Assembly (NCBI GenBank): GCA_049115495.1
Contig: JAGDZV010000001.1
Span: forward strand, 370,947 to 434,946
Source: Bacteroidia bacterium
GTDB taxonomy: Bacteria; Bacteroidota; Bacteroidia; CAILMK01; JACPUW01
Length of the DNA: 64,000 nucleotides
Reading direction: 5' to 3'
Part shown: positions 19,351 to 35,721 of the stretch, in pieces
Numbering within the stretch: position 1 is the stretch's first letter
Layout: every line of letters begins with the position of its first letter
Notes under the pieces: generated by a model
What the model was told of the DNA's origin: nothing
Databases searched by the model: none
Seen by the model: only the letters and a program-made list of their open reading frames with translations
Position numbers and translations under genes: made by a program

Positions 19351-20051
19351 TTGGTTATTTTCTTAATTACAAATTTCTTTTTTCGTATCCACTCTAGAAT
19401 AATTACGTTCATCAAAATAAGTAACATACCATACCAAATATCTTCAAAAGGTATAGTTGTAACTCTAAAGCCCAAGTTTTGCTCATTGTTATACATTACA
19501 ACCGGCTTTGCAGTAAGCACACCATTTACCAACATAAACGGAAAAATTGCAATTCCATATGTTGGATAAAAATAGTGTTCAATTTCGTGCTTGAACATAA
19601 TTCTCTGAACAATAAGAAATGTTGCCAATAACGAAAATGTAATTGCGGTGTAAGCTTTTTCGTAGTTGAATAATGCTGCCAAGATTAGTAGTGCCGAACC
19701 TCCGTAAGTTAGCACATTTAGCAATCTAATATTCAATTTAATATTAAACCATCCCCTAAGGCATTCGTATATAAAAACGCATGCATACGGTATAGTTATA
19801 AAAAAGAGCCACTCTTCAAGTGGCAAATTAATAAGATCTACACCCAATAAATAGGTTGGATTAAACCCCCAAACACCATTTTTAGTAAACCATACATCCC
19901 AAACAATAAAAAAGGCACCTACAATAAAAATGGCAATAAACAAATATTTCCAATTTTTATAAAAGGCCACCTTCTTATCGAAAGAAAGCACCAAGGGGAA
20001 AAACATGGTGCCAATGTTAAGTAAAAGGTAGGTATTGGGGCCGTCAAGCAT
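19347..20051 (-). CDS. crtYcd: Lycopene cyclase domain protein (fused heterodimeric CrtYcd-type lycopene beta-cyclase).
   Basis: ~234-aa polytopic membrane protein. It has two repeated halves, each with PLEEW/ PFEDIWY-type motifs (NLPLEEWLFFITIPYACV ... TIPFEDIWYGMLLIL), which characterise the lycopene_cycl_domain family (TIGR03462). Confidence 0.65.
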   Translation of the reverse strand: MLDGPNTYLLLNIGTMFFPLVLSFDKKVAFYKNWKYLFIAIFIVGAFFIVWDVWFTKNGVWGFNPTYLLGVDLINLPLEEWLFFITIPYACVFIYECLRGWFNIKLNIRLLNVLTYGGSALLILAALFNYEKAYTAITFSLLATFLIVQRIMFKHEIEHYFYPTYGIAIFPFMLVNGVLTAKPVVMYNNEQNLGFRVTTIPFEDIWYGMLLILMNVIILEWIRKKKFVIKKITK

Positions 20052-20057
20052 TATGCA

Positions 20058-20894: not shown

Positions 20895-22371
20895 GGTTTT
20901 GTTCTTTTATAATACGTTCGGTAACAAGTTTTGAACCTACCACAACCATTGGCAATCCGGTGCCTGGTGTGGTTGAAGCACCTACATAGTATAGGTTGTT
21001 CAACTCTTCATCTTTGTTGCTTGGTCTGAAATAGCCAATTTGGTCAAGATCGTGTGCAAGTCCAAGTCCGCTACCTTTATATAGATTAAACTTCTCTTCC
21101 CAATCTTTTGGTGTCCAAATTGTTTTGCTCAGTATATTATTCTTAATATCAAAATCTACTCTATTCCCTAAGTCTTCAATTATACCATTAGCAAATTCCT
21201 CGGCATCTTCCCAAGTGGGTTTATATCTTAGATCTTGTACAGGGCATAAAATAAATAGGTTTTCACAACCTTCTGGCGCGCAAGTATCATTCATCTTTGA
21301 CAGCGAATTCACATAGTAATAAGGTCTCTGTGGACTATCATTTCTAGTGAAAATCGTATCAGCATACTCTTTAAAATTATCTCCTAAAAAGTAGTTGTGG
21401 TGATTTAGATTGTCAATTTTCCCTTTAACACCAAGGTATATGGTAAAAGGAGCTAGCGTCCATTTCTTCTTGTCTAACTTAGGTTCTGCATACTTCTCTC
21501 TGTTTAGTATTTGCCCCCTAAACGAAGCTGCATCTCCATTAACTACATATGTATCGGCTTGCCAAAGATTTCCGTTTTGATCTACAACACCATCTACAGC
21601 ACCGTTAGATTTTTTTACTTCGGTAATTTCTGTGTTGAATAAAAACTGGACACCTCTTTTCTTGAGTTCAGCCATCATCACATCAACTATTTGATACATT
21701 CCACCTTTTACATTCCAGTAACCATCGTGTTTAAGCTCTGTGTAATTCAACAAGCTGTAAACAGCAGGCGTATTAAAAGGTGTTGCGCCTAGGAAAAATG
21801 CAACAAGTGAAAAAATGATTTTAACCTGTTCACTATCGTAATGACTATCAAGCTCGTCCCACATGTTTCTAAACAACATGGGAACATATTTAACGGGCAC
21901 TTTTAAAAATTGAGCAAAGAACTTGAAAGGATTGTCAAAATTGTTCTTTACGATGTTGTACTCAGTACTGTGAAAAAGATCAGATGCCTTTTTGAGGTAT
22001 TTCTCTGTTTTGGCAACAAAATCGGGTTCAATTTTGGCAAACTCTTGAGCCAACAACTCAAGGTCTTTGTAAACCTTATATCTCTCATCTTTGCCTGCAA
22101 AATGTACAGTGTACAGGGGATTAAGCTCGTGAAAATCAATTGGATTTTTCATACCCACGTACTTAAAAAGCTCGTCGAACTCATAGCTCATTGAGAAAAA
22201 CGAAGGACCTACATCCCAAGTAAATCCATCTTTTTTGAGCTGGTTTAATCTACCTCCAGCTTGATGGTGCTTCTCTATGATTTGTACGTGGTACCCATGG
22301 TGGGTTAAGCGCAAGGCTGTGGCTAATCCACCAAGTCCTGAACCTACAATAATTGCTTTAGGCTGCGGCAT
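20857..22371 (-). CDS. crtI: Phytoene desaturase (CrtI-type FAD-dependent).
   Basis: N-terminal KAIIVGSGLGGLATALRL (FAD βαβ fold). ~500 aa. The C-terminal YYVGASTTPGTGLPMVVVGSKL matches the CrtI C-terminal signature. Confidence 0.85.
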   Translation of the reverse strand: MPQPKAIIVGSGLGGLATALRLTHHGYHVQIIEKHHQAGGRLNQLKKDGFTWDVGPSFFSMSYEFDELFKYVGMKNPIDFHELNPLYTVHFAGKDERYKVYKDLELLAQEFAKIEPDFVAKTEKYLKKASDLFHSTEYNIVKNNFDNPFKFFAQFLKVPVKYVPMLFRNMWDELDSHYDSEQVKIIFSLVAFFLGATPFNTPAVYSLLNYTELKHDGYWNVKGGMYQIVDVMMAELKKRGVQFLFNTEITEVKKSNGAVDGVVDQNGNLWQADTYVVNGDAASFRGQILNREKYAEPKLDKKKWTLAPFTIYLGVKGKIDNLNHHNYFLGDNFKEYADTIFTRNDSPQRPYYYVNSLSKMNDTCAPEGCENLFILCPVQDLRYKPTWEDAEEFANGIIEDLGNRVDFDIKNNILSKTIWTPKDWEEKFNLYKGSGLGLAHDLDQIGYFRPSNKDEELNNLYYVGASTTPGTGLPMVVVGSKLVTERIIKEQNHASLISSNMQAV

Positions 22372-22879
22372 GTGATATGTTTATTCTTTGTAATTTCTTC
22401 TTAAGCTCTTGACGTGCTAAGAAAATACGACTCTTAACCGTGCCAAGTGGCAAATCAAGTTCGTCAGCAATTTCTTGATACTTAAATCCTTCATAATGTC
22501 TCATGAATGGCACTCGGTACTCATCTGGTAAACCCGCAACAATCTTCATAAGATCGTCCATTACTAATTTACCTTGTGCTCTGTTCCCTTCGCTCTGTTG
22601 GTTTGAGTCAAGATAAAAACTGTTTTCAGTTCCGTCTTGGGTAATTCTCATTTTGGTTTTACGACGGTAGTTGTTAATGAAGATATTCTTCATTATAGTA
22701 TAAAGCCACGCTTTGATGTTGGTTCCCTGTTCAAATTTGTCCTTGTTGCTCAAAGCTTTGAACATAGTCTCTTGCAAGAGGTCGTGGGTGTCTTCTAGGT
22801 CATTGGTAAGATTCAATGCGTATGGCTTCAAAAAATTTTGGAGGGCTATTACTTTAGTTTGAAACTCTTGTGTTGACAT
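22358..22879 (-). CDS. ECF-type RNA polymerase sigma-70 factor.
   Basis: Region 2 (DLLQETMFKALSNKDKF...KAWLYTIMKNIFINNYRR) and region 4 (EYRVPFMRHYEGFKYQEIADELDLPLGTVKSRIFLARQELKK) are present. The start MSTQEFQ at 22879 is supported by a candidate -7 box 14 nt upstream; the longest ORF start is 22930. The 3' end overlaps the crtI start by 14 bp. Confidence 0.75.
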   Translation of the reverse strand: MSTQEFQTKVIALQNFLKPYALNLTNDLEDTHDLLQETMFKALSNKDKFEQGTNIKAWLYTIMKNIFINNYRRKTKMRITQDGTENSFYLDSNQQSEGNRAQGKLVMDDLMKIVAGLPDEYRVPFMRHYEGFKYQEIADELDLPLGTVKSRIFLARQELKKKLQRINISHAAA

Positions 22880-22899
22880 GTGTTTAACTTTTGATGATT

Positions 22900-22967
22900 C
22901 AAACCTAAACAAAAAATTCAGACGTACCAAATTTTTGTTTAACTATTGACCCGCCTATGTTAAACAA
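22900..22967 (-). promoter_or_regulatory. Candidate Bacteroidetes-type promoter of the sigma/crt operon, with a perfect inverted repeat abutting it. The -7 element is TAGGTTTG (22907..22900, minus strand) and the -33 element is TTG (~22930..22928). The inverted repeat is TTGTTTAAC-N15-GTTAAACAA (22935..22967).
   Basis: Read directly from the sequence. It matches the Bacteroidetes sigA consensus TAnnTTTG/-33 TTG from established knowledge. The 9-bp perfect inverted repeat is very unlikely to be chance in an AT-rich context. Confidence 0.3.
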
Positions 22968-23173
22968 AGTTCGATTTAGATGTATATACATTGATTTTAA
23001 ACATAGGGTATATACTCTGTTAACGCATTTTAACGAACTAAAAGGTATATACAGCTAATGCTAATAGCATTTTCACAAGCTGTAATTATGTTTAACATAT
23101 GCAAATCCCAACCTAAACAAAATGAGCTTAGTTTAAAATTTGAGCCTATTGGTGTCCATTCTATATTTGAATT

Positions 23174-23554
23174 ATGACTAATCCCCTAGCCAAAAACACT
23201 ATTAAAACCTATGGATTTAGTCTTTTCATGTTTATTTTATTTATGGTTCACCAGTTTGTTGAACCATTTTACAAGCACAAGCTGATTGATAGTTATCTAG
23301 ACGATATCTGTTTTTTACCTGTAGCCTATGGTTTTGTTAAACTTTTAATTCAACAAAGTATTGATCATTCGTTTAAGCTTTCAATAAGTCATGCAATTAC
23401 TGGCCTAGTTGTTAGCATATTGGCTACTGAAATACTTTTTCCGGCTTTGAGTAATAAGCATACAGCAGATTTTTATGACGGTATCGCTTATATGATAGGA
23501 TCTATTTTGTTTATGCTTTTTGGTAATAAACAATTCAATAACAATGTTGGCTAA
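23174..23554 (+). CDS. Hypothetical small integral membrane protein with four predicted TM segments.
   Basis: Only the ORF and hydrophobicity support it. It is the first gene of a long co-directional array. Confidence 0.3.
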   Translation: MTNPLAKNTIKTYGFSLFMFILFMVHQFVEPFYKHKLIDSYLDDICFLPVAYGFVKLLIQQSIDHSFKLSISHAITGLVVSILATEILFPALSNKHTADFYDGIAYMIGSILFMLFGNKQFNNNVG

Positions 23555-23590
23555 GCCTATACCCTATTTTTGAAAGACAAACATTCTATT

Positions 23591-24157
23591 ATGAAACAAT
23601 TATTTCTCTTAACAATTGTTGCAGTTTTTATGGCTCCAAACAAATCGAGCGCCCAACTTGGTAAGCAATTTTTCTTTGAACTATCTCCGCTTTACTTTTT
23701 ATCTCAAGGCGGTGGTGGTGCCATTGGCACAGAAAAAGGACATTGGCAAAACGGACTTGCCTTTAATACATTTAATCCAAATGAATTCTATAGCAATGGA
23801 AAAATTCATGTTACGGGGTCAATTTCTGCCATTAGAGCCATGAGCTTTGAACCATTTACTAGGTTTTATTTTAGCAAAGAACGAAAATGGCTATACCTAG
23901 GCTTAAACCTAGTGCCTGAGCTTTATACTTTAAAAGATGAGAAAACGGGAGAAACTTCATTGAGTTTGAGTGCTTATGCAAAACCGAAAGTAGGTCTAAG
24001 ATGGTTTCCCTTTAAACGCATATTCTATTTGGATGCCGGTTATGCTATGAGCATTAAAATTCTTGATAGCGATGTCACACAATTGACTAATCCTGAATTT
24101 ACGTTTAGCGATTTTATTGGGATGCCTGAATTCTCTGTTGGGGTTAGAATAAAATAG
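23591..24157 (+). CDS. Hypothetical secreted protein.
   Basis: Signal peptide MKQLFLLTIVAVFMAPNKSSAQ; the ORF extends upstream to 23570. I do not recognise a family. Confidence 0.35.
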   Translation: MKQLFLLTIVAVFMAPNKSSAQLGKQFFFELSPLYFLSQGGGGAIGTEKGHWQNGLAFNTFNPNEFYSNGKIHVTGSISAIRAMSFEPFTRFYFSKERKWLYLGLNLVPELYTLKDEKTGETSLSLSAYAKPKVGLRWFPFKRIFYLDAGYAMSIKILDSDVTQLTNPEFTFSDFIGMPEFSVGVRIK

Positions 24158-24158
24158 T

Positions 24159-25046
24159 ATGGTAAACAAATCAGTCTTTCTGATCACAACTATCTTTTTT
24201 TGCTTGTCTTGCAATAGAGATCAAAAAATTATTGAAACCAATGAGTTTATTATTTCAGAAAACGTAGCTCCATTAATAATTGCCCATGGTGGGTCTAAGG
24301 CACTATTTCCTGAAAACACAATGCTAGCCTTTGATGAAAGTGTGAAAATTGGAGTTGACGCCCTAGAAATGGATGTGTGTTTGACTAAGGACGAGATCTT
24401 AGTAACTCACCATGATAAAACAATTGACAGAATGAGTGATGGTGAAGGAGCGGTATACAACTACACCTTTGCCGATCTTCTCAATTTCAATTTTGGCTAT
24501 GATTTTGTTGATCTGAAAGGTGATAAGCCCTATAAAAATTCTAAAGTTGAAATTGCTAAACTCGAGTCAGTTATTGAGAAATATTCTAATTATCCATTAA
24601 TAATAGAGATAAAGGATGAAGATGAACTAGGTAAAAAAGCTGCTGACCTTTTAACAGCATTGATTGATAAATATGGCATAAAGAGCACTACAATTATTGC
24701 TTCATTTCACGATAATATAATTGATTATATAATTGATAAAGACAATGGCTTTCTTGTATCAACTGCTGAAAGTGAAGCCAGAAGAATGGTTATTACAACA
24801 AAAAGTGGAATGACGCTTTTTTACAAACCAAGTGCCATGGCACTACAGTTACCAATGGAAAGTGCCGGTTTAAATCTAACGCGTAAAAGAATTATAAAAC
24901 ACGCTCACAAACGAAATATGGCTGTGCATTACTGGACCATTAACAACAAAGAAGATATGAAGCTATTAATTGAAAATGGTGCAGACGGCTTAATTACCGA
25001 TAGGCCAGACTTAATGAACGAAGTGCTAATTGAAATGGGCTTTTAG
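24159..25046 (+). CDS. Glycerophosphodiester phosphodiesterase family lipoprotein (GlpQ/UgpQ-like).
   Basis: Lipobox FFCLSCN. IIAHGGSKALFPENTMLAFDESVKIGVDALEMDVCLTKDEILVTHHD carries the GDPD catalytic H...R/E...D...H pattern. The start is 1 bp after the previous stop. Confidence 0.75.
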   Translation: MVNKSVFLITTIFFCLSCNRDQKIIETNEFIISENVAPLIIAHGGSKALFPENTMLAFDESVKIGVDALEMDVCLTKDEILVTHHDKTIDRMSDGEGAVYNYTFADLLNFNFGYDFVDLKGDKPYKNSKVEIAKLESVIEKYSNYPLIIEIKDEDELGKKAADLLTALIDKYGIKSTTIIASFHDNIIDYIIDKDNGFLVSTAESEARRMVITTKSGMTLFYKPSAMALQLPMESAGLNLTRKRIIKHAHKRNMAVHYWTINNKEDMKLLIENGADGLITDRPDLMNEVLIEMGF

Positions 25047-25092
25047 ATATTTAGCCGCTATATTTGGTTGCAATGATGCTTAAAAACGCTAA

Positions 25093-25551
25093 ATGATAAA
25101 GTATAACATTATAGCAACAGATAGCAGCTTTGGACCTGTTTGGTTCTTATTGGGTTCTGCTGTAATCGAATACATTATCGTTTCAATAATAAAAATGCAA
25201 TTCTCAAAAACGAGTAAAAGCAAAACCAAAATTATTGAAAACGGGTATCGGACACCAGATATTTTTGGACAACAAAGGCAAGATTTTACGAAATACAGTT
25301 CCTTTAAAAAAATGGATATTGATTGGCGAGTTGCACTTTTTGCTATTCTTACTTTGTTAAGTATTTCAATTATTCAAAATAAATACAAAGGTGGGGCTAA
25401 AGAAATTTCTTATTCAGAGACCTTTTATAATACTCATGCATTTCTATACCCTACTATAAAAGCTGCAGAACCACGCCATGTTACATTTGATTTAGACGTG
25501 ACAGAGCCATTTATTAAAAAAAATACAAAAACACAAAATGTTGAATTTTAA
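25093..25551 (+). CDS. Hypothetical membrane protein.
   Basis: Two predicted TM segments. No recognisable domain. Confidence 0.3.
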   Translation: MIKYNIIATDSSFGPVWFLLGSAVIEYIIVSIIKMQFSKTSKSKTKIIENGYRTPDIFGQQRQDFTKYSSFKKMDIDWRVALFAILTLLSISIIQNKYKGGAKEISYSETFYNTHAFLYPTIKAAEPRHVTFDLDVTEPFIKKNTKTQNVEF

Positions 25552-26008
25552 AATAGACGATGCCATATACTTTCTTGGCTTAACAAGGCAGCGCATAACG
25601 GATGTGATTAGCAATAAATCAACTGAACAGCTAAACAGAATACCGCAAGGTTTTAAAAACAACCTAATTTGGAATGCCGGACATTGTTTGGCCACCCAAA
25701 ACCTATTAACATATGGCTTAAGCGGTTTACCTTTTGATATTGATAATGAAATTATTGAAAGATATAGGAAAGGCTCGAGCCCAACTGAAATGGTAGAATC
25801 TGGCCAAATTGAGATAATTAAAAAAGAGTTGATTGAAAGCCCAAAGCGACTTTTAAATCACTATGAAGCTAGCGACTTTAAGCAATTTAAAGTATACCAA
25901 ACTAGCTACGGTGCCGAATTAAAAAATGTTGAGCAAGCTATTGCCTTCAATAATACGCATGAAGGACTTCATTTAGGGATTATGATGGCTCAATCTAAAT
26001 TGGTTTAA
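25538..26008 (+). CDS. DinB/YfiT-like superfamily protein (putative metal-dependent four-helix-bundle enzyme).
   Basis: NAGHCLATQNLL ... HEGLHLGIMMAQSKL. The conserved His positions and the ~155-aa size resemble DinB_2/DUF664-type proteins. This is a weak call. Confidence 0.4.
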   Translation: MLNFKIDDAIYFLGLTRQRITDVISNKSTEQLNRIPQGFKNNLIWNAGHCLATQNLLTYGLSGLPFDIDNEIIERYRKGSSPTEMVESGQIEIIKKELIESPKRLLNHYEASDFKQFKVYQTSYGAELKNVEQAIAFNNTHEGLHLGIMMAQSKLV

Positions 26009-26020
26009 AATTAGAATTAT

Positions 26021-26563
26021 ATGAAAGGAGTAGTATTTACCGAGTTTCTAGAGTTAGTTGAAGAAAAATTCGGATATGAAGTGGCTGATCACATAATTGA
26101 AACAAGTAATTTACCAAACAAAGGAGCTTACACCGCTGTAGGCACCTATCCATTTGGTGAGTTAGCTACCATGCTGGGTAAGCTTAGCGAGCACACAAAA
26201 ATTCCAGCTTCAGACCTATTAGTGGCCTTTGGTCATCACTTATTTAACACATTTATTAGGCTTTATGGACACTTTTTTGAAGGTATCAAAGATTCGTTCG
26301 ATTTTCTCACGAACATTGAAGGCTACATACATGTAGAAGTAAAAAAACTATATCCTGATGCTGAATTGCCAAGTATAAAAACGGAACAAATTGATGATAA
26401 AACACTCATTTTGCATTACGTGTCAAAAAGAAAACTGGCACATTTAGCCTTTGGTTTAATTGAGAAATCACTTGAACACTTTAAGCAAAAGGCAAACATT
26501 AAAATGGAAAATAAAGATGATTCGGGTGAGAATGTAACCATAACAGTTGAGCTAACAGATTGA
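26021..26563 (+). CDS. hnoX: H-NOX (heme nitric oxide/oxygen binding, HNOB) domain protein, a stand-alone gas sensor.
   Basis: It aligns with T. tengcongensis H-NOX. MKGVVFTEFLELVEEKFGYEV vs MKGTIVGTWIKTLRDLYG. The proximal-His region NIEGYIHVEVKK vs MMDEVHLQLTK. The Y-x-S-x-R motif ILHYVSKRKLAHLAFGLIEKSLEHFK vs EMEYVSKRKMYDYFLGLIEGSSKFFK. The stop overlaps the next gene's ATG (ATGA). Confidence 0.85.
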   Translation: MKGVVFTEFLELVEEKFGYEVADHIIETSNLPNKGAYTAVGTYPFGELATMLGKLSEHTKIPASDLLVAFGHHLFNTFIRLYGHFFEGIKDSFDFLTNIEGYIHVEVKKLYPDAELPSIKTEQIDDKTLILHYVSKRKLAHLAFGLIEKSLEHFKQKANIKMENKDDSGENVTITVELTD

Positions 26564-29040
26564 GTAGCGAAGTTGACATATTAAAAAGAAGACTTGAAAG
26601 AGAGCGATTGGCGCGAAAAGAAGCCGAGCGAATTCTTGAAGAACGCTCGCTTCAGCTATACCATGCCAACGAAAAGCTCATTGAAATAAATCAAAACCTT
26701 GAAGAGAAAGTAGAGAAAAGAAGCAAAGAGCTTTTTATTCAAGAAAAAAACTACCAACAAGTAGTAGAAAATGTTCCTGATATAATCTACAAGGCTGACG
26801 CTGACGGGAAATTCATTTTTGTAAATAAAAACGCCGAAGAAATTACAGGGTATTCTGAAAAAGAGCTTTTGCAAATGCACTACATGCAATTGATAAAAGG
26901 AGACCATGTTGAGAATGTTCAGGCCTTTTATTACCAGCAGTACCTTGAAAAGGTTTCCAAATCATATTTAGAATTTCCGATTTTAACTAAAGAGCAAAAG
27001 CTTGTTTGGATTGGACAAAACGTGCAATACAATTACAAGAACAATGGTGAAATTGAAGAAGTATTTGCCATTGCCCGTGATATTACAGAGTTTAAATATG
27101 CCAATGAGCAGCTGGCCATAAGTGAAGAAAAATATCGAAGCATAATTGAGAACTTACACTTGGGCCTTTTAGAAACTGATGTTGAAGGTATAGTTACTAA
27201 GGTTTATCCTAAGTTTACTGAACTTACTGGCTATGCTCCACAAGATCTTCTTAACAAAGACCCTAAAAAAGTACTTTTAAAAAATGATGCAGACCGCCAA
27301 CTTGTTGTTGAACAAGAAAAACTAAGAATACAGAAAAAGGCAAGTGCATACGAAGCACCCTTGGTTAAAAAGAATGGCGAAACCATTTGGGTAATTATTA
27401 GCGCCGCTCCTATTTTCTCAAGAGAAGGTGAAATTATAGGAACCATTGGAGTTCATTTCGATATTTCGGAACGAAAACAAATGGAAGAAGACCTTAGAAA
27501 CGCTAGACATGAAGCCGAAAGCGCTCAAAAAGCCGAGCAGTTGTTTTTGGCCAATATGAGCCATGAAATTAGAACTCCGCTTAATGCTGTAATAGGCATG
27601 GCACATTTGCTATATGATTTGTCTTCAACTCAAGAGCAAATAGAGTATTTAGATATAATTAAAAACTCTGCTAACCTTTTAAAAGGGATAATTAACGATA
27701 TACTTGACATAAGTAAAATTGAAGCAGGTAAACTTGAGTATAACGAAAGTGATTTTTTAATAGCCGAACTGATTAAATCTCTTAGCAAAACCTTTGAGCT
27801 TAAAGTACAAGGCAAGCCCATTGAAGTTAAGTCTGAAATTGACGATCTTCTAAAAAACCAGGTAATTAAAGGTGATAGTTTACTTTTAAATCAAGTGCTT
27901 CTAAACTTATTAAGCAATGCTGAAAAGTTTACGAGTAAGGGCGAAATTGGCCTAAATGCTCAAGTGCTTAATAACACACCAGACCGCATAGATCTTCAAT
28001 TTATGGTTTATGATTCGGGAATAGGTATTAGCCCAAATAGAATTGACTCAATTTTTGAAAAATATGAGCAAGCCAATCAAGAAACCAAGATGAAATATGG
28101 CGGTACTGGACTGGGATTGGCAATAACCAAAAAAATAGTTGAGTTTTTAGGCGGTCATATTTCTGTAGAAAGCACAGAAAATATTGGCAGCGTGTTTAAG
28201 GTAAACTTAGGTTTTGAGAAATCAGCAGATAGCGCTGAAGCAAAAATTGAAGTTAACACAGAAAAAGAACAAACTAAAGTATATAAAGATGTATTGGTGG
28301 TTGAAGATAACGCCATGAATCGCAAATATTTAGGCGAGATTTTTAAACGATTTGACTTAAGCGTTGAATACGCCTTTGACGGCCAAATTGCCATTGAAAA
28401 AACGCAACAAAAGGTGTTTGATATTATTTTAATGGACCTGCAAATGCCTGTTAAAGATGGTTTTGAAGCAACGGTAGAAATTAGGAATAAATTAAACCCT
28501 AACCACAAGACCGAAATTGTGGGTTTAAGTGCGTTTGCAACTGATGAAGTAATTAAAAAATGTAACATGGCCGGAATGAATAATTTCATTTCTAAACCAG
28601 TTACCCCAAGTCAAATTATTGACTTGCTTAATTTAAGACAACAGCAACCCGTAATTGATTCAACTGGAATAGACAAAAGGAGCCGACTTGACAAAAATGT
28701 ATTGGAAGAACTCTATTTCGGTGATGAGAGCTACGCTTTTGAAATGTTCGATCATTTTCTTGGGGTAGCCGACGAACAGATTAATCAACTCAAAACAACT
28801 ATAAACGAGCAAAACTGGAAAGAGCTTAGAAGGTTAATTCATAAAATGAAACCTGGATTTTCTATGGTTGGCCTTCCCGGACTTCAAGAAATCGGATCAA
28901 AGCTTGAAACGGCTTGTGAGCTTGATGCCGAAAAAGAAATTCTAGAAATTTCTAAAACACTATTTATTGAGTTTGATGCTAGTATAAAAGATGTAGAAGA
29001 AGAACACAAACGATTAAAAGAATCTATTAATAGTAAATGA
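26560..29040 (+). CDS. hnoK: Hybrid sensor histidine kinase with an N-terminal coiled-coil, two PAS domains, HisKA, HATPase_c, a REC receiver and a C-terminal Hpt domain.
   Basis: H-box FLANMSHEIRTPLNAVIGM. N/G-boxes LLNLLSNAEKF, YGGTGLGLAI. Receiver DVLVVEDNAMNRKYL...ILMDLQMPVKDG...KPV. The Hpt-like IHKMKPGFSMVGL has a phosphorylatable His. There are no TM segments, so it is a cytoplasmic sensor. Confidence 0.85.
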   Translation: MSSEVDILKRRLERERLARKEAERILEERSLQLYHANEKLIEINQNLEEKVEKRSKELFIQEKNYQQVVENVPDIIYKADADGKFIFVNKNAEEITGYSEKELLQMHYMQLIKGDHVENVQAFYYQQYLEKVSKSYLEFPILTKEQKLVWIGQNVQYNYKNNGEIEEVFAIARDITEFKYANEQLAISEEKYRSIIENLHLGLLETDVEGIVTKVYPKFTELTGYAPQDLLNKDPKKVLLKNDADRQLVVEQEKLRIQKKASAYEAPLVKKNGETIWVIISAAPIFSREGEIIGTIGVHFDISERKQMEEDLRNARHEAESAQKAEQLFLANMSHEIRTPLNAVIGMAHLLYDLSSTQEQIEYLDIIKNSANLLKGIINDILDISKIEAGKLEYNESDFLIAELIKSLSKTFELKVQGKPIEVKSEIDDLLKNQVIKGDSLLLNQVLLNLLSNAEKFTSKGEIGLNAQVLNNTPDRIDLQFMVYDSGIGISPNRIDSIFEKYEQANQETKMKYGGTGLGLAITKKIVEFLGGHISVESTENIGSVFKVNLGFEKSADSAEAKIEVNTEKEQTKVYKDVLVVEDNAMNRKYLGEIFKRFDLSVEYAFDGQIAIEKTQQKVFDIILMDLQMPVKDGFEATVEIRNKLNPNHKTEIVGLSAFATDEVIKKCNMAGMNNFISKPVTPSQIIDLLNLRQQQPVIDSTGIDKRSRLDKNVLEELYFGDESYAFEMFDHFLGVADEQINQLKTTINEQNWKELRRLIHKMKPGFSMVGLPGLQEIGSKLETACELDAEKEILEISKTLFIEFDASIKDVEEEHKRLKESINSK

Positions 29041-29708
29041 ATTGCGTTGTAGTAGATGATGATGAAATGATGCTAAACTCCATAAAGAGGCTTTGCGAGA
29101 AGTCTGGTGTTTTCTCAGAAATCAATATTTTTAATGATAGCGAAGAAGCCGCTCAATTCATTTTTAACCGTCAGCCTGACGTACTTTTTCTTGATATTGA
29201 AATGCCCGGTATTAGTGGCATTGAACTACTCAAATCTTTTAACAAGATTGAGAATGTGATTGTAATTAGTGGTAAAACTGAATACGCATTTGAAGCTTAC
29301 CAGCTTAATGTAATAGATTATCTACCTAAGCCAGTAACGCTTCCAAGATTTTTGGCATCAATTGAAAAAATAAAACCAAAAACTGAAGAAAAGCCTGAAG
29401 AACTATACGTTAAGGTTGAAGGTAAGCTTACACGTGTACTGTTTAGTGAAATATTATATATTGAATCACTTACTGATTATATAAGGATTAATACATACAA
29501 CCATAAACACGTTGTTTACAGCTCTTTAAAACATATTGAATCAAAGCTCCCCTCTAAAATGTTTATGAAAGTACACAGGTCCTACATTGTAAACATGAGC
29601 AAAATCAAAGACATTGACGAAAACCTAATTGTTATTGAAGACGCCGTTATACCTGTAAGTAGAGCAAACCAATCTGAACTAATTAAGCGCCTAAACTTGT
29701 TGAAGTAG
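29037..29708 (+). CDS. LytTR-family response regulator (REC plus LytTR DNA-binding domain; AlgR/AgrA class).
   Basis: Receiver VVVDDDEMML...LFLDIEMPGISGIEL. C-terminal LytTR YVKVEGKLTRVLFSEILYIESLTDYIRINT...KVHRSYIVNMSKI. The start overlaps the kinase stop (ATGA). Confidence 0.85.
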   Translation: MNCVVVDDDEMMLNSIKRLCEKSGVFSEINIFNDSEEAAQFIFNRQPDVLFLDIEMPGISGIELLKSFNKIENVIVISGKTEYAFEAYQLNVIDYLPKPVTLPRFLASIEKIKPKTEEKPEELYVKVEGKLTRVLFSEILYIESLTDYIRINTYNHKHVVYSSLKHIESKLPSKMFMKVHRSYIVNMSKIKDIDENLIVIEDAVIPVSRANQSELIKRLNLLK

Positions 29709-29736
29709 TTCTCAAATTCAATTTAGTTTTTAGTAA

Positions 29737-30420
29737 ATGAGAGTTGCAGTCATTATTCCTGCGTTTAATGAAGAAAATGCTATTGCAAATGTGGTGAGAG
29801 ACATTCCTTCAGAGATTGAGGCAACCATATTGGTTTGTAATAACGGATCTTCTGATAGAACAGCTGCAGTTGCTAAAGAAGCAGGTGCTCTTGTACTTAC
29901 TGAAAACCGCAAAGGCTACGGATATGCATGCCTAAAAGGAATGAACTATATAGAGAATCACCTACCTAATACCGATGTGGTTGTTTTTATTGATGGTGAT
30001 TACTCTGATTACCCAGAAGAAATGCCAAAACTTTTGAATGAAATTGAAGCAGGATTTGACATAGTTATAGGCTCACGTGCACTTGGTCAATCAGAAAAAG
30101 GATCTATGACTATTCCTCAGCGCTTTGGTAATTGGCTATCTGGAATACTTATAAGGTTAATTTGGGGTGTTAAGGTTACTGACCTAGGGCCATTTAGAGC
30201 TATGAAATGGAAGCAGCTTCAAAAACTAAACATGCAAGACCCTACTTACGGCTGGACGGTTGAAATGCAGATAAAGGCCATAAAAGGTAAAATGGCCTAT
30301 AAGGAGATAGCCGTAAATTACCGACAGAGAATTGGAACAAGTAAAGTATCTGGAACGGTAAAAGGTGCCATCTTTGCCGGAACAAAAATTCTGTATACCA
30401 TTTTTAAGTATGCTTTTTAA
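29737..30420 (+). CDS. GT2 glycosyltransferase of the polyprenyl-phosphate sugar synthase type (Dpm1/ArnC/GtrB-like).
   Basis: MRVAVIIPAFNEENAI (GT-A N-terminus), DxD VVVFIDGDYSD, ~227 aa and soluble. This is typical of dolichyl/undecaprenyl-phosphate hexose synthases. It starts 28 bp after the LytTR regulator. Confidence 0.75.
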   Translation: MRVAVIIPAFNEENAIANVVRDIPSEIEATILVCNNGSSDRTAAVAKEAGALVLTENRKGYGYACLKGMNYIENHLPNTDVVVFIDGDYSDYPEEMPKLLNEIEAGFDIVIGSRALGQSEKGSMTIPQRFGNWLSGILIRLIWGVKVTDLGPFRAMKWKQLQKLNMQDPTYGWTVEMQIKAIKGKMAYKEIAVNYRQRIGTSKVSGTVKGAIFAGTKILYTIFKYAF

Positions 30421-31876
30421 TACGCTCGAGCTAATTACCCTGGGTGTTTACTCAGTGGCCATTCTATATTTATTTGTATTTAGCTTGAGCCAAATTCATC
30501 TCACTTGGGCTTATATAAAAAGAAAAAAGAATGCACCAAAAAGCCACTTTTCTAGAGTGTATAAGCCAGTGGTTACCATTCAACTACCTATTTACAACGA
30601 ACCCACCGTTGTGAAAAGACTTATTGAGCAGGTATCTGAAATTAATTATCCAAAAAACTTACTTGAAATTCAAATACTAGACGATTCTACTGATAAGACA
30701 AGCGCCATTATTAAGGATGTTGTTGCACAGCTTCCGAAAGATTTAGATGTAACTCATATTCAGCGTACCAATAGAAAAGGATTTAAAGCGGGCGCACTTA
30801 AAGAAGGTTTAGTTACTGCTAAAGGTGAACTTGTAGCAATTTTTGACGCTGACTTTTTGCCCGAAAAAGATTTCTTAGAAAAAACTGTTGGATTTTTTGA
30901 AAATGAACACCTTGGTGTGGTTCAAACAAAATGGGGGCACTTAAACGAAGATTATTCTTTACTTACAAAAACTCAAGCTTTTGGGCTTGATGCCCACTTT
31001 TCAGTTGAGCAAAAAGGTAGAAACATAGAAAACTGCTTTATCAGTTTTAATGGCACTGCAGGTATATGGCGAAAAGCATGTATTGAAGATGCAGGTGGGT
31101 GGCAAAGCGACACTTTAACCGAAGATTTAGACCTTTCTTTTAGGGCGCAAATAAAAGGCTGGAAATTTTTGTTTCTTGAAGAAGTGATATCGCCTGCTGA
31201 GCTCCCAATTACTGTTGGCGCATATAAATCTCAACAGTACCGTTGGAACAAAGGAGCCGCAGAAACACATGTTAAACTATGGAAAAAGGTTAAGCAAAGC
31301 AACATTACGGGCAAAGTAAAAGCCCACGCATTAATGCAATTGGTTAAAGGGATAGGGTTTATTGCCAGCTTTTTGCTCACCATTACTAGTGTGCCCATTC
31401 TGTATTTCAAATCAGCAGGAAATAGTACCAATACAACCATGCAAATTCTATCATTTACACTATTGTGTATTGTTGCATTAGTAATGTTCTATTTAGCGTC
31501 GAGCATAAGCCATCAAAACTCAAGAAAAGGTGGAATTATAAAATTTTTAAGAGAGTTCCCCGTATTTATTGCTATCTCACTAGGCACAACCCTACACAAT
31601 ACTGTTGCCGTAATTGAAGGCTATCTAAAAATTAAGACACCTTTTGTAAGAACACCAAAATTCAACGTATCAAATGGTAGCAAAGTTGTTGCAGAAGGAA
31701 ACATTACTTGGCTCACTTTTATTGAAGGGGTATTGGCCATATATTTTGTATTTGGGATTTTTCTTTCTTTCAAGCTACTAGATTTTACGTTTTTACCTTT
31801 TCATATTCTTTTGTTTTTAGGCTATGGGTATTTCTTTTTTTATTCCATAGCGCAACGCTATAATTGGGCGCGATAA
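30410..31876 (+). CDS. Processive membrane GT2 glycosyltransferase (CesA/NodC/HAS-like, with D,D,D,QxxRW motifs).
   Basis: N-terminal TM. ILDDSTDKT (D,D), AIFDADF (DxD), TED, and QQYRWNKG (QxxRW). Five or six C-terminal TM segments. The ORF extends to 30365; the start MLFNTLELITLG at 30410 is preferred. Confidence 0.75.
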   Translation: MLFNTLELITLGVYSVAILYLFVFSLSQIHLTWAYIKRKKNAPKSHFSRVYKPVVTIQLPIYNEPTVVKRLIEQVSEINYPKNLLEIQILDDSTDKTSAIIKDVVAQLPKDLDVTHIQRTNRKGFKAGALKEGLVTAKGELVAIFDADFLPEKDFLEKTVGFFENEHLGVVQTKWGHLNEDYSLLTKTQAFGLDAHFSVEQKGRNIENCFISFNGTAGIWRKACIEDAGGWQSDTLTEDLDLSFRAQIKGWKFLFLEEVISPAELPITVGAYKSQQYRWNKGAAETHVKLWKKVKQSNITGKVKAHALMQLVKGIGFIASFLLTITSVPILYFKSAGNSTNTTMQILSFTLLCIVALVMFYLASSISHQNSRKGGIIKFLREFPVFIAISLGTTLHNTVAVIEGYLKIKTPFVRTPKFNVSNGSKVVAEGNITWLTFIEGVLAIYFVFGIFLSFKLLDFTFLPFHILLFLGYGYFFFYSIAQRYNWAR

Positions 31877-33208
31877 TTGGGTTTAAAAGTTAAAATAGCA
31901 CTTTTTGCGTCTATTGCCTTTAGTATTGGAGCTTATTTTTCAATTCAACATGTTATTAATCCAATACATGTTTATGAGCTCATAGGAGCCTATTTACTGG
32001 CATTTGCTGCATATGCGACTTTTTTAAATCAAAAAGTAAAACTTAACCTTTGGCATGTATTTGTTTTGGGTTTGGCTTTTAGGCTGTTTATGTTTTCTTG
32101 GCCAACACTTTCTGATGACTTTTACAGATTCTACTGGGATGGCAAGCTCTTAGCTGAAGGTACTAATCCATATGCAACAATCCCTAAATCAATATTTGGA
32201 TTAGAGGTAAATAATATTAAGGTAGCTCATAAAACCTTATACGACTTCTTAAACTCAAAGGACTACTTCTCAGTTTACCCGCCTTTTTTACAGTACATAT
32301 TCGGTTTTTCTGCATTAGTTGGTAATAGCCTAAATGGCTTTGTTGCAGTATTTAGCATCCTTGTGCTCTCGGCCGAAGTTGGCACCTTCTTTTTGGTCAG
32401 AAAAATCCTTCTTATAAAAAACCTTCCTCTAAAAAACATAGCTATTTACTGGCTTAACCCATTAATAGTTATTGAGCTAAACGGAAATTTACATGGTGAG
32501 GTATTTATGATTTTGGCCATTGCGGCCGCCTTATATTTCTACAACACGAAGAAATTCCTAATTACAGGCTTGGCCCTTGGCTTAGCAGTTTTAACCAAGC
32601 TCTACCCTATTCTTTTTATCCCTTTCTTTCTATTACCATTTAATAAAAAACCAGCATTAGTAATATTACTTGGCGTGGTAATAAGTGTATTTGCATTGGG
32701 AAGACCTTTAATTAATTTAGAGCTTGCAGCAAACATTTTTGAAAGTATTCAATTGTATTATGCCAAATTTGAGTTTAATGGCAGTATTTATAACCTTTTG
32801 AAACAAATTGGAATAAAACTTACAGGCTATAATCAAATAAATCTCATTGGCAAAGTGTTAGGACTACTTACTTTAGTTGGTTTTGGTGTATTGTATTTCT
32901 TTAAAGTAAAATCTCCTTCAAAATTTACAATTGAAAGAAACATTTATTTAGGAATGATTCTTTTTTACCTGTTAAGCACTACCATAATGCCTTGGTATTT
33001 GAGCATTATAATATTTGCTAGTGTTTTTAATAAATCTAAGGTCGGAATCGTTTGGTCGGCCTTAGTAATACTAACCTATTCGGCATTTTCAAATACTCAC
33101 TTTAAAGAAGATTCGGCCTTAGTTGCCGTTGAATATTATGCATTGGCCGCGGTAATAATTTTTGAACTTAGAAACTACTTCAGACAAAAGATATTTGAGT
33201 CTAATTAA
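31877..33208 (+). CDS. Polytopic integral membrane protein, possibly a GT-C-fold glycosyltransferase (DUF2029/ArnT/PMT-like).
   Basis: More than ten predicted TM helices. An acidic motif sits in the first extracytoplasmic loop (PTLSDDFYRFYWDG), as in GT-C enzymes that use lipid-phosphate sugar donors. The start is 1 bp after the previous stop. The family assignment is inferential. Confidence 0.4.
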   Translation: MGLKVKIALFASIAFSIGAYFSIQHVINPIHVYELIGAYLLAFAAYATFLNQKVKLNLWHVFVLGLAFRLFMFSWPTLSDDFYRFYWDGKLLAEGTNPYATIPKSIFGLEVNNIKVAHKTLYDFLNSKDYFSVYPPFLQYIFGFSALVGNSLNGFVAVFSILVLSAEVGTFFLVRKILLIKNLPLKNIAIYWLNPLIVIELNGNLHGEVFMILAIAAALYFYNTKKFLITGLALGLAVLTKLYPILFIPFFLLPFNKKPALVILLGVVISVFALGRPLINLELAANIFESIQLYYAKFEFNGSIYNLLKQIGIKLTGYNQINLIGKVLGLLTLVGFGVLYFFKVKSPSKFTIERNIYLGMILFYLLSTTIMPWYLSIIIFASVFNKSKVGIVWSALVILTYSAFSNTHFKEDSALVAVEYYALAAVIIFELRNYFRQKIFESN

Positions 33209-33779
33209 GCAAATACGCGGGTCTTGGTTTTCGGGTATTTACAAGGCCACCATTCTGCCAAGGGCCAGAAAAAAAGCTAAGCTATTAAAACCTATGCTCA
33301 ATCCAAAATCTAAAATCTTAGAAATAGGAAGTGGTAATTGTGGTTTGGCTTATTTGCTTCAGAAAGATTTTCATAGCGTTACCGCAACTGATATTGTTGA
33401 TTGCTCTTTTTTCAACTCAATAAAACCTACTGTTTTTAATGGCGAAGCACTTCCTTTTAAATCAAAGTCATTTGACTATGTTTTAATTATTACCGTTTTA
33501 CACCATACAACAAAACAATTGAGTCTGTTAAATGAAGCCAAGCGTTTAGGTAATGAAGTTATTGTGATGGAAGATCTATATACCAATAAATTTGGCCAGA
33601 GAATTCTTCATTTTACAGATAGCTTGGTAAATCTTGAGTTTAAAGGACACCCACATACCAATAGAACTGATGCAGGCTGGAGAGTTGTGTTCAAAAGACT
33701 AAACTTGAAAATTACTGATACAGTTAAACTCAGAACCCTCTTTTTTTTCAGGCAAATAATTTACATGCTAAGATCCTAA
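33162..33779 (+). CDS. Class I SAM-dependent methyltransferase.
   Basis: ILEIGSGNCGLAYLL (motif I, GxGxG) ... VLIITVLHH (motif post-II) ... VIVMED. The true start is probably internal (for example M at 33294), because the ORF overlaps the upstream gene by 47 bp. Confidence 0.55.
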   Translation: MNLETTSDKRYLSLIKQIRGSWFSGIYKATILPRARKKAKLLKPMLNPKSKILEIGSGNCGLAYLLQKDFHSVTATDIVDCSFFNSIKPTVFNGEALPFKSKSFDYVLIITVLHHTTKQLSLLNEAKRLGNEVIVMEDLYTNKFGQRILHFTDSLVNLEFKGHPHTNRTDAGWRVVFKRLNLKITDTVKLRTLFFFRQIIYMLRS

Positions 33780-33939
33780 TTATCTGCAACATAAGAAAAA
33801 CCCTTGTGTTGGTATTCCTTCTATTTTTGTTGCATGAAATCAAAAGCCTTGAAACTATTTTTAGTTTGCATAAGTTGTTTGGCCATAATAAGCCTTTTGG
33901 TTTTACTGATTCAATCATTAACAAACTAAAACAATAAAC

Positions 33940-34152
33940 ATGAAGAAGAACATGGGAAGCACCGATAGAATTGTAAGGTTAATAATTGCAATTGTAATAG
34001 CCGCACTCTATTTCACAAACGTTGTAAGCGGAACTTTAGGGCTTATTCTACTTGTACTGGGTACAATTTTTGCCCTTACATCTTTTGTAAGCTTTTGCCC
34101 TTTATACTTGCCCTTTGGCTTGAGCACTTGTAAAACTGAGAAGACTTTATAG
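33940..34152 (+). CDS. DUF2892 (YgaP-like) small membrane protein.
   Basis: 70 aa. DRIVRLIIAIVIAALY...GLILLVLGTIFALTSFVSFCPLYLPFGLSTC matches the DUF2892 consensus (two TM, CPxY...G..T). Confidence 0.6.
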   Translation: MKKNMGSTDRIVRLIIAIVIAALYFTNVVSGTLGLILLVLGTIFALTSFVSFCPLYLPFGLSTCKTEKTL

Positions 34153-35046
34153 AGCGTCTAAAAAGCCGTTTAAGTCTTCGAGATTTGAAACAAAAATTAC
34201 ATTAGGCCACTTTATTTGCACCTTTGACTCTGCAAGTCTTGTACCTGCAATTATGAAAGTTTTGTTAGGGAATAAAGAGCTCAGGGTATCAATATATCCG
34301 GTTACTTCTTCAATTCCAGTTTCATAGGTTAAAACGGTAAAAAAATAATCAGGATTGTAAACATTTGATATAACCGAAAGGTCATCGACCGGAACGGTTT
34401 GGCCTAAATAAACAGTTTTATGACCATTTACTTTAAATAAGTAATTGGCGAATAAGAGTCCAATTTCGTGCAATTCACCTTCTGGTAAAAACAAGGCAAA
34501 CTTGCTTGGATTTTCCACTTTTTTTGGCAGCATATTATCAGCAGCCACAATAAGCTTGTGTCTTATCAAATTAGAGATGAAATGCTCTTGTGCAGGTACT
34601 ATACTTCCTGTTTGCCAAAGGATTCCGATCCGATACATGAAAGGATAAATTACCTTAGTAACTGCATGTGTAAAGCCCAACTTTATTACCACATTGCTCA
34701 ATATCTTTTCAAACTTATCTTCATCAAGATCAAGCATGGTAATGGTGAGAGCATTTAGCAAATCACTATCTGCCTCAACTTTTTCAGTTACAGTCATTAC
34801 CCTACTGTTTATCTCTTGTCTGGTAAGTTCTGCAATTTTAGAAATACGCATGCCGTTATTATTGAGCATGGCAATATTGAGTACATGTTTTAAATCTTCC
34901 TCGTCAAAATACCTGATATTGGTACCTGTTCTTTTGGGCTGAATAATTGAATAGCGCTGCTCCCAAATACGCAGAGTATGGGCTTTGATACCTGTGAGCT
35001 GTTCAAGGTCTTTCATTGAAAATGTGCCTTGTTGCTTTTCTTTCAT
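34147..35046 (-). CDS. MerR-family transcriptional regulator with a C-terminal cobalamin-binding domain (CarH/LitR-type AdoB12-dependent light sensor).
   Basis: N-terminal MerR HTH (FSMKDLEQLTGIKAHTLRIWEQRY). A B12-binding four-helix bundle with the Wx9EH motif (ILWQTGSIVPAQEHF). A Rossmann B12-binding domain with E/DxHxxG (LPEGELHEIGLLF) and a downstream ...SNV...GG-like region. Confidence 0.7.
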   Translation of the reverse strand: MKEKQQGTFSMKDLEQLTGIKAHTLRIWEQRYSIIQPKRTGTNIRYFDEEDLKHVLNIAMLNNNGMRISKIAELTRQEINSRVMTVTEKVEADSDLLNALTITMLDLDEDKFEKILSNVVIKLGFTHAVTKVIYPFMYRIGILWQTGSIVPAQEHFISNLIRHKLIVAADNMLPKKVENPSKFALFLPEGELHEIGLLFANYLFKVNGHKTVYLGQTVPVDDLSVISNVYNPDYFFTVLTYETGIEEVTGYIDTLSSLFPNKTFIIAGTRLAESKVQIKWPNVIFVSNLEDLNGFLDAL

Positions 35047-35079
35047 TGCTTTTGCAGCTATTAATTAATTCTAAAATTT

Positions 35080-35721
35080 TTAGGCAAACGCCAAAAACAT
35101 GGTTATAAAAAAGGTAATCAAGTAGATAAACACCCACTTGGCCATAATGTTTAGCCCTATTTGATTTAAAGTAAACCAAATGGTATTTAATATAGAAGCA
35201 ATCACAAACCAAGCCACATAATTACGGAATGGCACCGTGTTGTTTTGCCATTGCCAAAAATCAAAGGCCATGGCTACAGGCTCCATAATTACATCCATTA
35301 CCACCATAATTAATGCAGCTATTAAGCCCAAAACAACCTTTGGCAGCTTAATTTTTCTTATAACATAAACAGATGTATAACACATTAAAAGCCAGTTAAC
35401 GCCCATGGTTATTGGAACATTAAAAATTTTGAGGCCTAGAGTTTCTCCGTAATGATATTCTCCAAAAATAATTCCCGTTTTTACGCCTGCCACTTCAACA
35501 AAAAAGCCAACAAGAAAAACCAAGACCATCCATAGTGCTTCTTTAGTATTCCATTGTTTATGGTGTAACAACAAAAAACCTAAAACAAACCATAGGTTAA
35601 CGCTACTTAAGCCTAATGTAATTTCATGAAATTGAGATGTTAAAATGCCAACGAAACCGACAATTTCAATTATAAGAAAAAGCCAAATTGAATACTTTCT
35701 GTATGTATCTATTTTTTGCAA
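35080..35721 (-). CDS. Polytopic membrane protein, putatively of the carotenoid biosynthesis protein family (PF04240, CruF-like carotenoid 1',2'-hydratase).
   Basis: ~213 aa with 6-7 TM, and conserved His/Glu/Trp residues (LLLHHKQWN, FFVEVAGVKTG...GEYHYG, MEPVAMAFDFWQW). The assignment rests on overall resemblance and on its position next to the CarH-like regulator. I could not verify by alignment. Confidence 0.4.
   Translation of the reverse strand: MQKIDTYRKYSIWLFLIIEIVGFVGILTSQFHEITLGLSSVNLWFVLGFLLLHHKQWNTKEALWMVLVFLVGFFVEVAGVKTGIIFGEYHYGETLGLKIFNVPITMGVNWLLMCYTSVYVIRKIKLPKVVLGLIAALIMVVMDVIMEPVAMAFDFWQWQNNTVPFRNYVAWFVIASILNTIWFTLNQIGLNIMAKWVFIYLITFFITMFLAFA

Follow-up and report, generated by a model that had tools for sequence, protein, structure and literature searches.

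A predicted nitric oxide-type H-NOX phosphorelay of Bacteroidota and its clade-restricted adjacency to a glycan-synthesis cassette

When genes for a gas sensor stand immediately in front of genes for glycan synthesis, does the sensor control the glycan? The question is raised by a 64-kb stretch of DNA derived from a metagenome-assembled genome of a Bacteroidia bacterium (hereafter the window), in which a stand-alone H-NOX haem sensor, a hybrid histidine kinase and a LytTR response regulator (the trio) are encoded directly upstream of two family 2 glycosyltransferases (GT2a and GT2b), a GT-C fold glycosyltransferase and a methyltransferase (the cassette; Table 1). A first-pass annotation had proposed that sensing of nitric oxide (NO) or O2 leads straight to transcription of the cassette through the regulator, by analogy to AlgR and alginate. 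We consider it about evenly poised whether the locus encodes a functioning NO-type H-NOX phosphorelay with glycan as its likeliest output and the cassette coupled to it by co-transcription. Comparative evidence supports the general idea of a Bacteroidota phosphorelay that leads from NO by way of LytTR to glycan transcription; the link of the trio to this particular cassette is weak and consists of adjacency in one clade only.

The first trio gene encodes a protein that matches the HNOB profile (PF07700) over its full length (E=5.9e-43, profile positions 1-162 of 163). In an alignment with 23 relatives, His104, Pro112, Tyr133, Ser135 and Arg137 were invariant. His104 aligned with His104 of the Kordia protein and with H102 of the Caldanaerobacter protein, the proximal haem ligand, and Y133-x-S135-x-R137, the haem-propionate motif, aligned with Caldanaerobacter Y131/S133/R135 (the Caldanaerobacter reference sequence was entered by hand). 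The profile match, the proximal His and the YxSxR motif on which the first-pass annotation had staked its H-NOX call are thus all present. Caldanaerobacter W9, N74 and Y140 are the residues that hydrogen-bond O2. At these positions the window protein has F9, L74 and L142, giving an apolar distal pocket with no hydrogen-bonding network; Boon and colleagues reportedly found in 2005 that such a pocket excludes O2. Because apolar residues replace the three that hydrogen-bond O2, we predict a sensor of the NO-selective type. Among solved structures, the protein matched Kordia, Shewanella, Nostoc and Caldanaerobacter H-NOX entries in the PDB, the closest of them being Kordia algicida H-NOX (6BDE/6BDD; residues 1-174, E=1e-42, His104 shared), for which 6BDD is a solved Bacteroidota structure (PMC7356049). 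The view that H-NOX systems are "essentially uncharacterised" in Bacteroidetes therefore needs amending where structure is concerned. In the literature we searched, we found no study of signalling partners of Kordia algicida H-NOX, which has been studied as an isolated protein only, and no paper describing an H-NOX/LytTR system, as had been supposed.

The kinase is built, in order, of a coiled coil, two PAS domains, HisKA (H335), HATPase_c, REC (D626) and Hpt (H761), as read from Pfam matches and motifs, and all three phospho-sites are present. The regulator matched Response_reg (E=1.8e-20) and LytTR (E=1e-20), with its phospho-acceptor D53 in the motif LDIEMP. A sequence scan found no hydrophobic segments in H-NOX, kinase or regulator, and we take the kinase to be soluble; the proposed cytoplasmic hybrid kinase with two PAS domains, REC and Hpt, and the proposed REC-LytTR regulator, both hold up. 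Both gene junctions had been described as ATGA. This is correct for kinase and regulator, where the regulator's ATG start overlaps the kinase stop at 29037-29040, but the H-NOX/kinase junction at 26560-26563 reads TTGA, with a TTG start of the kinase overlapping the TGA stop of hnoX by 4 nt. These overlaps are conserved in the window's clade.

To place the trio we used two sets of loci, designated by L numbers and annotated with longest-open-reading-frame (ORF) calls: the 80 best H-NOX loci from GTDB species genomes (H-NOX loci), and 80 loci retrieved from metagenomes with the GT-C protein as query (cassette loci). H-NOX, kinase and LytTR genes occurred in that order in 38-39 of the 80 H-NOX loci, and the arrangement of a soluble kinase in the same operon as a stand-alone hnoX, which in the window includes the 4-nt overlap, has the same frequency. 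The carriers span Saprospiraceae, Spirosomataceae, Cyclobacteriaceae, Flammeovirgaceae and Flavobacteriaceae. In Proteobacteria and other phyla, hnoX is followed by a shorter kinase, without LytTR. Judged from these comparisons, the window trio is orthologous to a module common in Bacteroidota, and the gene logic suggested by the first-pass annotation is real, with its domains in place, its overlaps kept in the clade and the same trio widespread in the phylum.

The neighbours of the trio in other lineages point to its output. Recurrent among them are GT4 and GT2 glycosyltransferases, Wzx-type flippases, Bac_transf initiating transferases and GlmS-like amidotransferases, together with UDP-glucose dehydrogenases, epimerases and a GH5 enzyme; these polysaccharide genes differ in kind from the window's cassette. 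At least two recognised polysaccharide genes were present in 22 of 38 trio loci compared with 7 of 42 non-trio H-NOX loci, a count in which the families were recognised partly by their recurrence, which favours the better-sampled Saprospiraceae. Several of the seven non-trio loci are Bacteroidota with a LytTR gene elsewhere or with a contig that is cut. In a family-blind Pfam annotation of 130 random neighbours from each group, the trio neighbours gave GT1 (8), GT2 (8), GlmS-like (5), Wzx (4), Bac_transf (3) and GH5 (4), whereas the non-trio neighbours gave GT2 (6), GT1 (2) and Wzx (2) and, in place of the others, receiver, GGDEF and EAL domains. This amounts to an enrichment of about two- to threefold, but the counts ignore relatedness, many of the loci being from Saprospiraceae, and the control consists of other H-NOX loci rather than random genome segments. 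Because the usual partners of the trio are genes for envelope or exopolysaccharide synthesis, glycan production is most likely the class of output that it controls.

A candidate operator accompanies these genes. When 7-mers recurring at 19-23 nt were sought between the genes of the trio loci, TTTTTGG stood out, repeated in this way in 13 loci, while at control spacings no 7-mer was repeated in more than three. A longer unit, about TTTCGnTTTTTGGTAg, is shared by 21 sites with a 21-nt period. In Saprospiraceae and some other lineages, hnoX and polysaccharide genes are thereby preceded by a direct repeat phased at 21 nt, TTCGnTTTTTGGTA, with sites of the form TTCGnTTTTTGGTA-N8-TTCGnTTTTTGGTA in L023, for example. 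A matrix built from the sites and scanned over 1.31 Mb of H-NOX loci returned 44 sites scoring 18 bits or more, almost all of them intergenic, and it returned none in 1.02 Mb of Bacteroidota cassette loci, which served as control. Sites stand upstream of hnoX in about a dozen loci, and 40-90 nt upstream of GlmS, UGDH, GT1, GT2, TPR and stand-alone receiver genes adjoining the regulator gene; strong ones were also found in loci outside the set from which the matrix was built (L023, L025, L028, L065 and L080). Outside the window's clade, what typically follows the LytTR gene immediately is a set of polysaccharide genes with phased repeats in front of them. Sites for LytTR regulators such as AgrA and ComE consist of two direct repeats one double-helical turn pair apart, and the candidate sites of the Saprospiraceae orthologues share this geometry, with two direct repeats at a 21-nt period upstream of polysaccharide genes. 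From the co-location of sites and trio we infer that the regulator of the trio binds the phased repeats. The motif was not detectable in Flavobacteriaceae, most Spirosomataceae or the window's clade, and de novo phased-repeat searches of sets from the window's clade, Flavobacteriaceae, and Spirosomataceae/Cyclobacteriaceae gave no signal. The proposed path from signal to transcription of glycan genes is thus supported by the company the trio keeps elsewhere, in polysaccharide clusters with phased repeats, and not by the cassette of the window.

What does the cassette encode? The best solved relatives of GT2a in a profile search are DPMS and ArnC, and the protein is soluble, with no membrane anchor. 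GT2b matched the BcsA catalytic domain (E=5e-23), carries the motifs DAD161, TED252 and QQYRW290, and has hydrophobic segments at residues 10-49 and 322-485. By its D/DxD/TED/QxxRW motifs and flanking helices we class it as a processive-type membrane GT2 (BcsA/NodC/HAS-like). Its ORF is listed from a GTG at 30365, but 488-aa gene calls in relatives point to ATG 30410, which is probably the true start. The third protein scored 27.2 bits against GT87 (cut-off 25), has a precomputed PF26314 match for the identical protein, and matched the GPI mannosyltransferase 1 profile (E=1.2e-8); D81, R84, W87 and D88 are invariant, and several hydrophobic segments run along its length. Because GT-C protein and methyltransferase are fused into one protein of 612-658 aa in several other genomes (P0138, P0178, P0195, P0217, P0227 and P0228), the methyltransferase is, on this gene-fusion evidence, a functional partner of the GT-C protein. 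Profiles and motifs agree with the earlier description of the four genes, and its gap of 28 nt between regulator and GT2a is correct. We found no characterisation of a GT2a-GT2b-GT-C module in Bacteroidota in the literature.

The trio is followed directly by the cassette in the window, L171, L169 and L084, and L170 has both with an insert between them, so that five clade genomes keep the two together. H-NOX is 59-63% identical to that of the window in L169, L170 and L084; the L170 contig ends within the GT-C gene. The order of crt genes, DinB, H-NOX, kinase, regulator, cassette, MerR-B12 and CruF is the same in L171, L169 and L084. Since synteny in the clade extends over the whole neighbourhood and takes in unrelated genes (GDPD, DinB and crt), the adjacency of trio and cassette is weak evidence on its own. 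Their juxtaposition is limited to the window's own clade, and the expectation that orthologous loci keep the H-NOX system beside the cassette, which holds in the five clade genomes, largely fails elsewhere.

Several observations weigh against coupling and would be explained if the adjacency were incidental, the cassette being a housekeeping envelope-glycosylation module that is expressed from the upstream divergent promoter or by constitutive read-through, and the targets of the regulator lying elsewhere; we regard this as quite possible, if short of an even call. Outside the window's clade, the cassette genes (GT2a, GT-C and methyltransferase) were near H-NOX in none of the 80 H-NOX loci, and all 80 cassette loci elsewhere conserve the cassette without H-NOX, kinase or LytTR genes. 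GT2a-GT2b-GT-C forms an autonomous module, found in 36 of the 52 metagenome loci with enough upstream DNA and also in Hymenobacter and Zeaxanthinibacter isolates, where the Zeaxanthinibacter cassette adjoins arginine genes, and GT2a is 53-60% identical among cassette loci across Bacteroidota families. In L170, a 3.4-kb gene (13728-17171) for a secreted protein of 1147 aa (Laminin_G_3, sorted by the type IX secretion system, T9SS) separates the regulator from GT2a. The closest relative, with an H-NOX 83% identical to that of the window, has kept the cassette (64-81% identical) and lost kinase and regulator, of which kinase residues 9-223 and regulator residues 181-223 remain beside an intact, orphan H-NOX. 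This loss, at L081 10563-11357, is a deletion of about 2.4 kb; the kinase remnant is frameshifted, and at the junction stands a 32-nt tandem duplication, GCTTACATAGTGAATATAATTAAGCTTAAAGA (two copies). Two ENA metagenome samples have contigs that show the deletion (L081 and L082), and L083, a shorter contig from a third data set that ends at 11218 within the stretch, matches as far as it extends. The Saprospiraceae operator scored at best 11.9 in the window, compared with a maximum of 15.7 in 30 shuffles of the window, and over the clade loci the matrix gave nothing above shuffled background. LytTR-type direct repeats, for which 29700-29740 and the DNA upstream of 26021 had been suggested as places to look, were found neither in 29300-29800 nor 5' of 26021. 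The clade-wide synteny adds to the case for an incidental neighbour. What speaks for coupling is that a glycan cassette in the slot 3' of the LytTR gene fits the pattern of other lineages, and that a 28-nt spacer with no terminator makes independent expression of the cassette unlikely.

The surroundings of the array suggest another account, in which the 12 same-strand genes that include trio and cassette form, together with the carotenoid genes on either side, a regulon for light or photo-oxidative stress, driven by the extracytoplasmic function (ECF) sigma factor and the MerR/B12 (CarH/LitR-like) regulator through shared TGTTTAAC-N15-TAAACAAA elements, with the H-NOX system as a member or modulator. 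The array is divergent from an operon for the ECF sigma factor, CrtI, CrtB, lycopene cyclase and glutathione peroxidase (GSHPx), and the MerR-B12 gene and a CruF-like gene lie on its other side. The three copies of the motif are found nowhere else in the window; the middle one is palindromic, one lies about 55 nt before the first gene of the + strand, and the motif is conserved in all six clade loci, the regulator-less one included. The region that holds them is likeliest the promoter/operator region of the array that contains sensor and cassette, and the motif may be an ECF-type promoter or an operator of the nearby MerR/B12 regulator. Carotenoid genes were found in none of the 80 cassette loci elsewhere and in none of the trio loci, and the arrangement could be plain synteny of the clade; we therefore think a stress regulon unlikely. 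Lower still we place the idea of a sensor of oxygen tension, whose ligand would be O2 (or CO) and not NO. Some members of the H-NOX family do bind O2, and the two PAS domains of the kinase could add redox or O2 input, but the O2-binding residues are replaced (as judged against the hand-entered reference sequence), and the nearest solved structures after that of Kordia algicida H-NOX belong to Shewanella H-NOX proteins whose entries describe them as NO-binding sensors; O2 as the ligand seems very unlikely to us.

In the reading that we prefer, a glycan-directed NO phosphorelay with a co-transcribed cassette, H-NOX would bind NO at ferrous haem and modulate autophosphorylation of the soluble hybrid kinase. 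Phosphate would then pass from H335 to D626, to H761 of the Hpt domain and on to D53 of the LytTR regulator, and transcription would change. The cassette would share a transcript with the sensor genes, as the last part of the long same-strand array, its expression following that of the two-component genes without a dedicated LytTR-activated promoter, and transcription of the long operon may be driven from the divergent region that it has in common with the carotenoid operon. Because the 28-nt spacer is too short for a LytTR box and a promoter, co-transcription is the most likely mode of coupling, if there is any, rather than activation in the manner of AlgR. Consistent with this, the spacer has no hairpin and a terminator-like hairpin stands directly after the methyltransferase gene, although terminator-like matches also occur within the array and their frequency in the region is not above that of shuffled sequence. 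Direct AlgR-like activation of the cassette, as first proposed, does not fit the short spacer without a repeat, nor a cassette that is autonomous elsewhere and outlives loss of the regulator. It is tempting to extend the argument to a Bacteroidota-wide, self-regulating NO switch for envelope polysaccharides that acts through an operator of two TTCGnTTTTTGGTA units 21 nt apart, was fused in this clade into one operon with the cassette inside a carotenoid stress locus, and lets NO remodel the surface without cyclic di-GMP (c-di-GMP). We offer this larger picture tentatively and think it rather doubtful.

How does the trio compare with known systems? In Vibrio fischeri, HnoX-HahK acts via the Hpt domain of SypF on transcription of the syp polysaccharide locus, so that a path from NO to exopolysaccharide transcription has a precedent; there too a stand-alone H-NOX lies beside a kinase, and an NO-controlled phosphorelay ends in polysaccharide transcription, not in c-di-GMP turnover (PMC8738867). 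The Vibrio fischeri kinase feeds a separate Hpt protein, whereas the window kinase has REC and Hpt fused to it, and unlike in Vibrio fischeri the cognate regulator is a LytTR protein encoded in the same operon. SypG, the regulator of syp, is of the sigma-54 type. Shewanella oneidensis HnoX-HnoK and Vibrio H-NOX/HqsK (VpsS)-LuxU-LuxO are likewise systems in which hnoX overlaps or adjoins the gene of a soluble kinase, and NO-regulated phosphotransfer governs biofilm behaviour in them (PMC6769237, PMC3759921). Neither has a PAS-PAS-...-Hpt single polypeptide or a LytTR regulator, both of which are found in the window. Their outputs are response regulators with EAL/HD-GYP domains (c-di-GMP) or a quorum-sensing relay, where the window has LytTR. 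Since control of biofilm by H-NOX and kinase is well known, the trio is a variation on an established theme, not a system of a new type. A REC-LytTR regulator is shared with Pseudomonas aeruginosa FimS(AlgZ)-AlgR and with AgrA/ComE; unlike these, the trio takes its input from a haem gas sensor rather than a membrane kinase or peptide receptor, and the window lacks their type of repeats. The cassette follows the logic of a donor synthase plus an outer-face transferase known from Ppm1 with MptA/MptB (mycobacteria), GtrB with GtrC-type proteins, and DPM1 with PIG-M. Unlike those pairs of polyprenyl-phosphate-sugar synthase and GT-C enzyme, it adds a BcsA-like GT2 and a methyltransferase, and its GT2a has no membrane anchor.

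Nearly all that is known of how NO controls bacterial biofilm behaviour comes from Proteobacteria, where H-NOX works via c-di-GMP enzymes or quorum-sensing relays. If the comparative reading is true, Bacteroidota, which are abundant on marine particles, on algae and in activated sludge, would gain a direct and testable route from NO to surface glycan via LytTR, and a candidate operator and cultured species with the trio (Aquimarina spongiae DSM 22623, Rapidithrix thailandica JCM 23209 and Flavobacterium sp. ASW18X) are on hand. For the window the message is narrower: a real sensor system, joined to its cassette by neighbourhood within one clade.

Table 1. Features of the window, with corresponding or example sites in other loci (L numbers). 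Positions are those of the window unless a locus is named.
Feature	Position	Strand	Basis or remark
Carotenoid genes, side one	18793-22930	-	glutathione peroxidase, lycopene cyclase (PF18916), crtB, crtI, ECF sigma factor
Divergent control region between ECF sigma/crt operon (-) and 12-gene array (+)	22882-23119	.	three copies of TGTTTAAC-N15-(C/G)TAAACAAA
Motif region in relatives	L081 6872-6956; L084 7264-7348; L169 4586-4824; L170 7258-7486; L171 1003-1087		
DinB_2 family gene	25538-26008	+	Pfam E=1e-20; 12 nt upstream of hnoX
H-NOX haem sensor, stand-alone, 180 aa	26021-26563	+	Pfam HNOB
Soluble tripartite hybrid histidine kinase	26560-29040	+	Pfam and motif reading
REC-LytTR response regulator	29037-29708	+	Pfam Response_reg and LytTR
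28-nt spacer TTCTCAAATTCAATTTAGTTTTTAGTAA	29709-29736	+	no direct repeat, no hairpin
GT2a, Dpm1/ArnC/AglJ-like candidate polyprenyl-phosphate sugar synthase	29737-30420	+	Pfam GT2; DGD86
GT2b, membrane-embedded BcsA/NodC-like GT2	30365-31876	+	Pfam GT2; motifs
GT-C fold polytopic glycosyltransferase (GT87/MptA_B, PIG-M-like)	31877-33208	+	profiles; DDFYR80 loop motif
S-adenosylmethionine (SAM)-dependent methyltransferase	33162-33779	+	Pfam
Terminator-like hairpin, 9-bp stem	33787-33811	+	directly 3' of methyltransferase gene
Carotenoid genes, side two	34147-35721		MerR/B12-binding CarH/LitR-like regulator, CruF-like hydratase
Example candidate operator sites	L023 13916-13957; L023 9670-9711; L058 6429-6470; L018 320-361		

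The ORF listing bore out the coordinates first given for all seven genes of trio and cassette, and placed them within an unbroken array of 12 same-strand genes (23174-33779, + strand) with gaps of at most 46 nt. The block of sensor and cassette is the 3' two-thirds of this array and hence not isolated. The first five genes of the array are two without assigned function, a GDPD phosphodiesterase, one more without assigned function, and DinB_2, which is the upstream neighbour of hnoX throughout the window's clade; on the far side of the array lie a small YgaP-like membrane protein, the MerR/B12 regulator and the CruF-like carotenoid gene. The carotenoid locus is thus split around sensor and cassette. 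Rfam and tRNA scans of the window found nothing, and a scan for the sigma-70 consensus, which is not informative for Bacteroidota promoters, gave fewer matches than shuffled sequence.

In the divergent control region the palindromic core GGTATATAC occurs three times, 26 and 37 nt apart (22981-23052). A search for LytTR repeats in 22931-23173 turned up only the near-palindromic TGTTTAAC elements, which persist in the lineage without the regulator, and these were set aside as candidates. Directly upstream of hnoX, L084 (9975-9998) and L170 (9975-9998) share an inverted repeat, CCGTTTACATTTGAGAAAAAACGG, that contains TACATTTG; the corresponding gap before hnoX in the window is just 12 nt. The -7 promoter motif of Bacteroidota is TAnnTTTG, which TACATTTG fits. 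Between regulator and GT2a, at the position of the L170 insertion, L084 has about 170 nt between two copies of the 3' end of the regulator gene (13690-13925; TTGAAATAG..AACCTTTT), an arrangement that resembles a scar left at a hotspot of insertion and deletion.

The crt genes on either side had also raised the thought that the cassette serves carotenoid glycosylation; we rejected it as a general function, since CrtI, CruF or CarH homologues were present in 0 of the 80 cassette loci elsewhere. In Hymenobacter jejuensis (L086 13049-13645) a divergent HNOB gene of 198 aa lies 3.7 kb from a GT2a-GT2b-GT-C triplet, after an ECF sigma/anti-sigma pair and within a radical-SAM/rhodanese/DUF2064 cluster. 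With no other cassette locus alike, we treated this proximity as coincidence.

FIST is the fold of the NO sensor NosP. In seven loci of Spirosomataceae and Flavobacteriaceae (L002, L038, L044, L047, L048, L066 and L076) the H-NOX locus also holds a FIST-domain protein with its own kinase, and two different NO sensors may converge there on one LytTR regulator. In the window, the YgaP-like transmembrane protein of 70 aa (PF11127, E=1.5e-23) is encoded at 33940-34152, between the methyltransferase and MerR/B12 genes, by an ORF shorter than the usual length cut-off.

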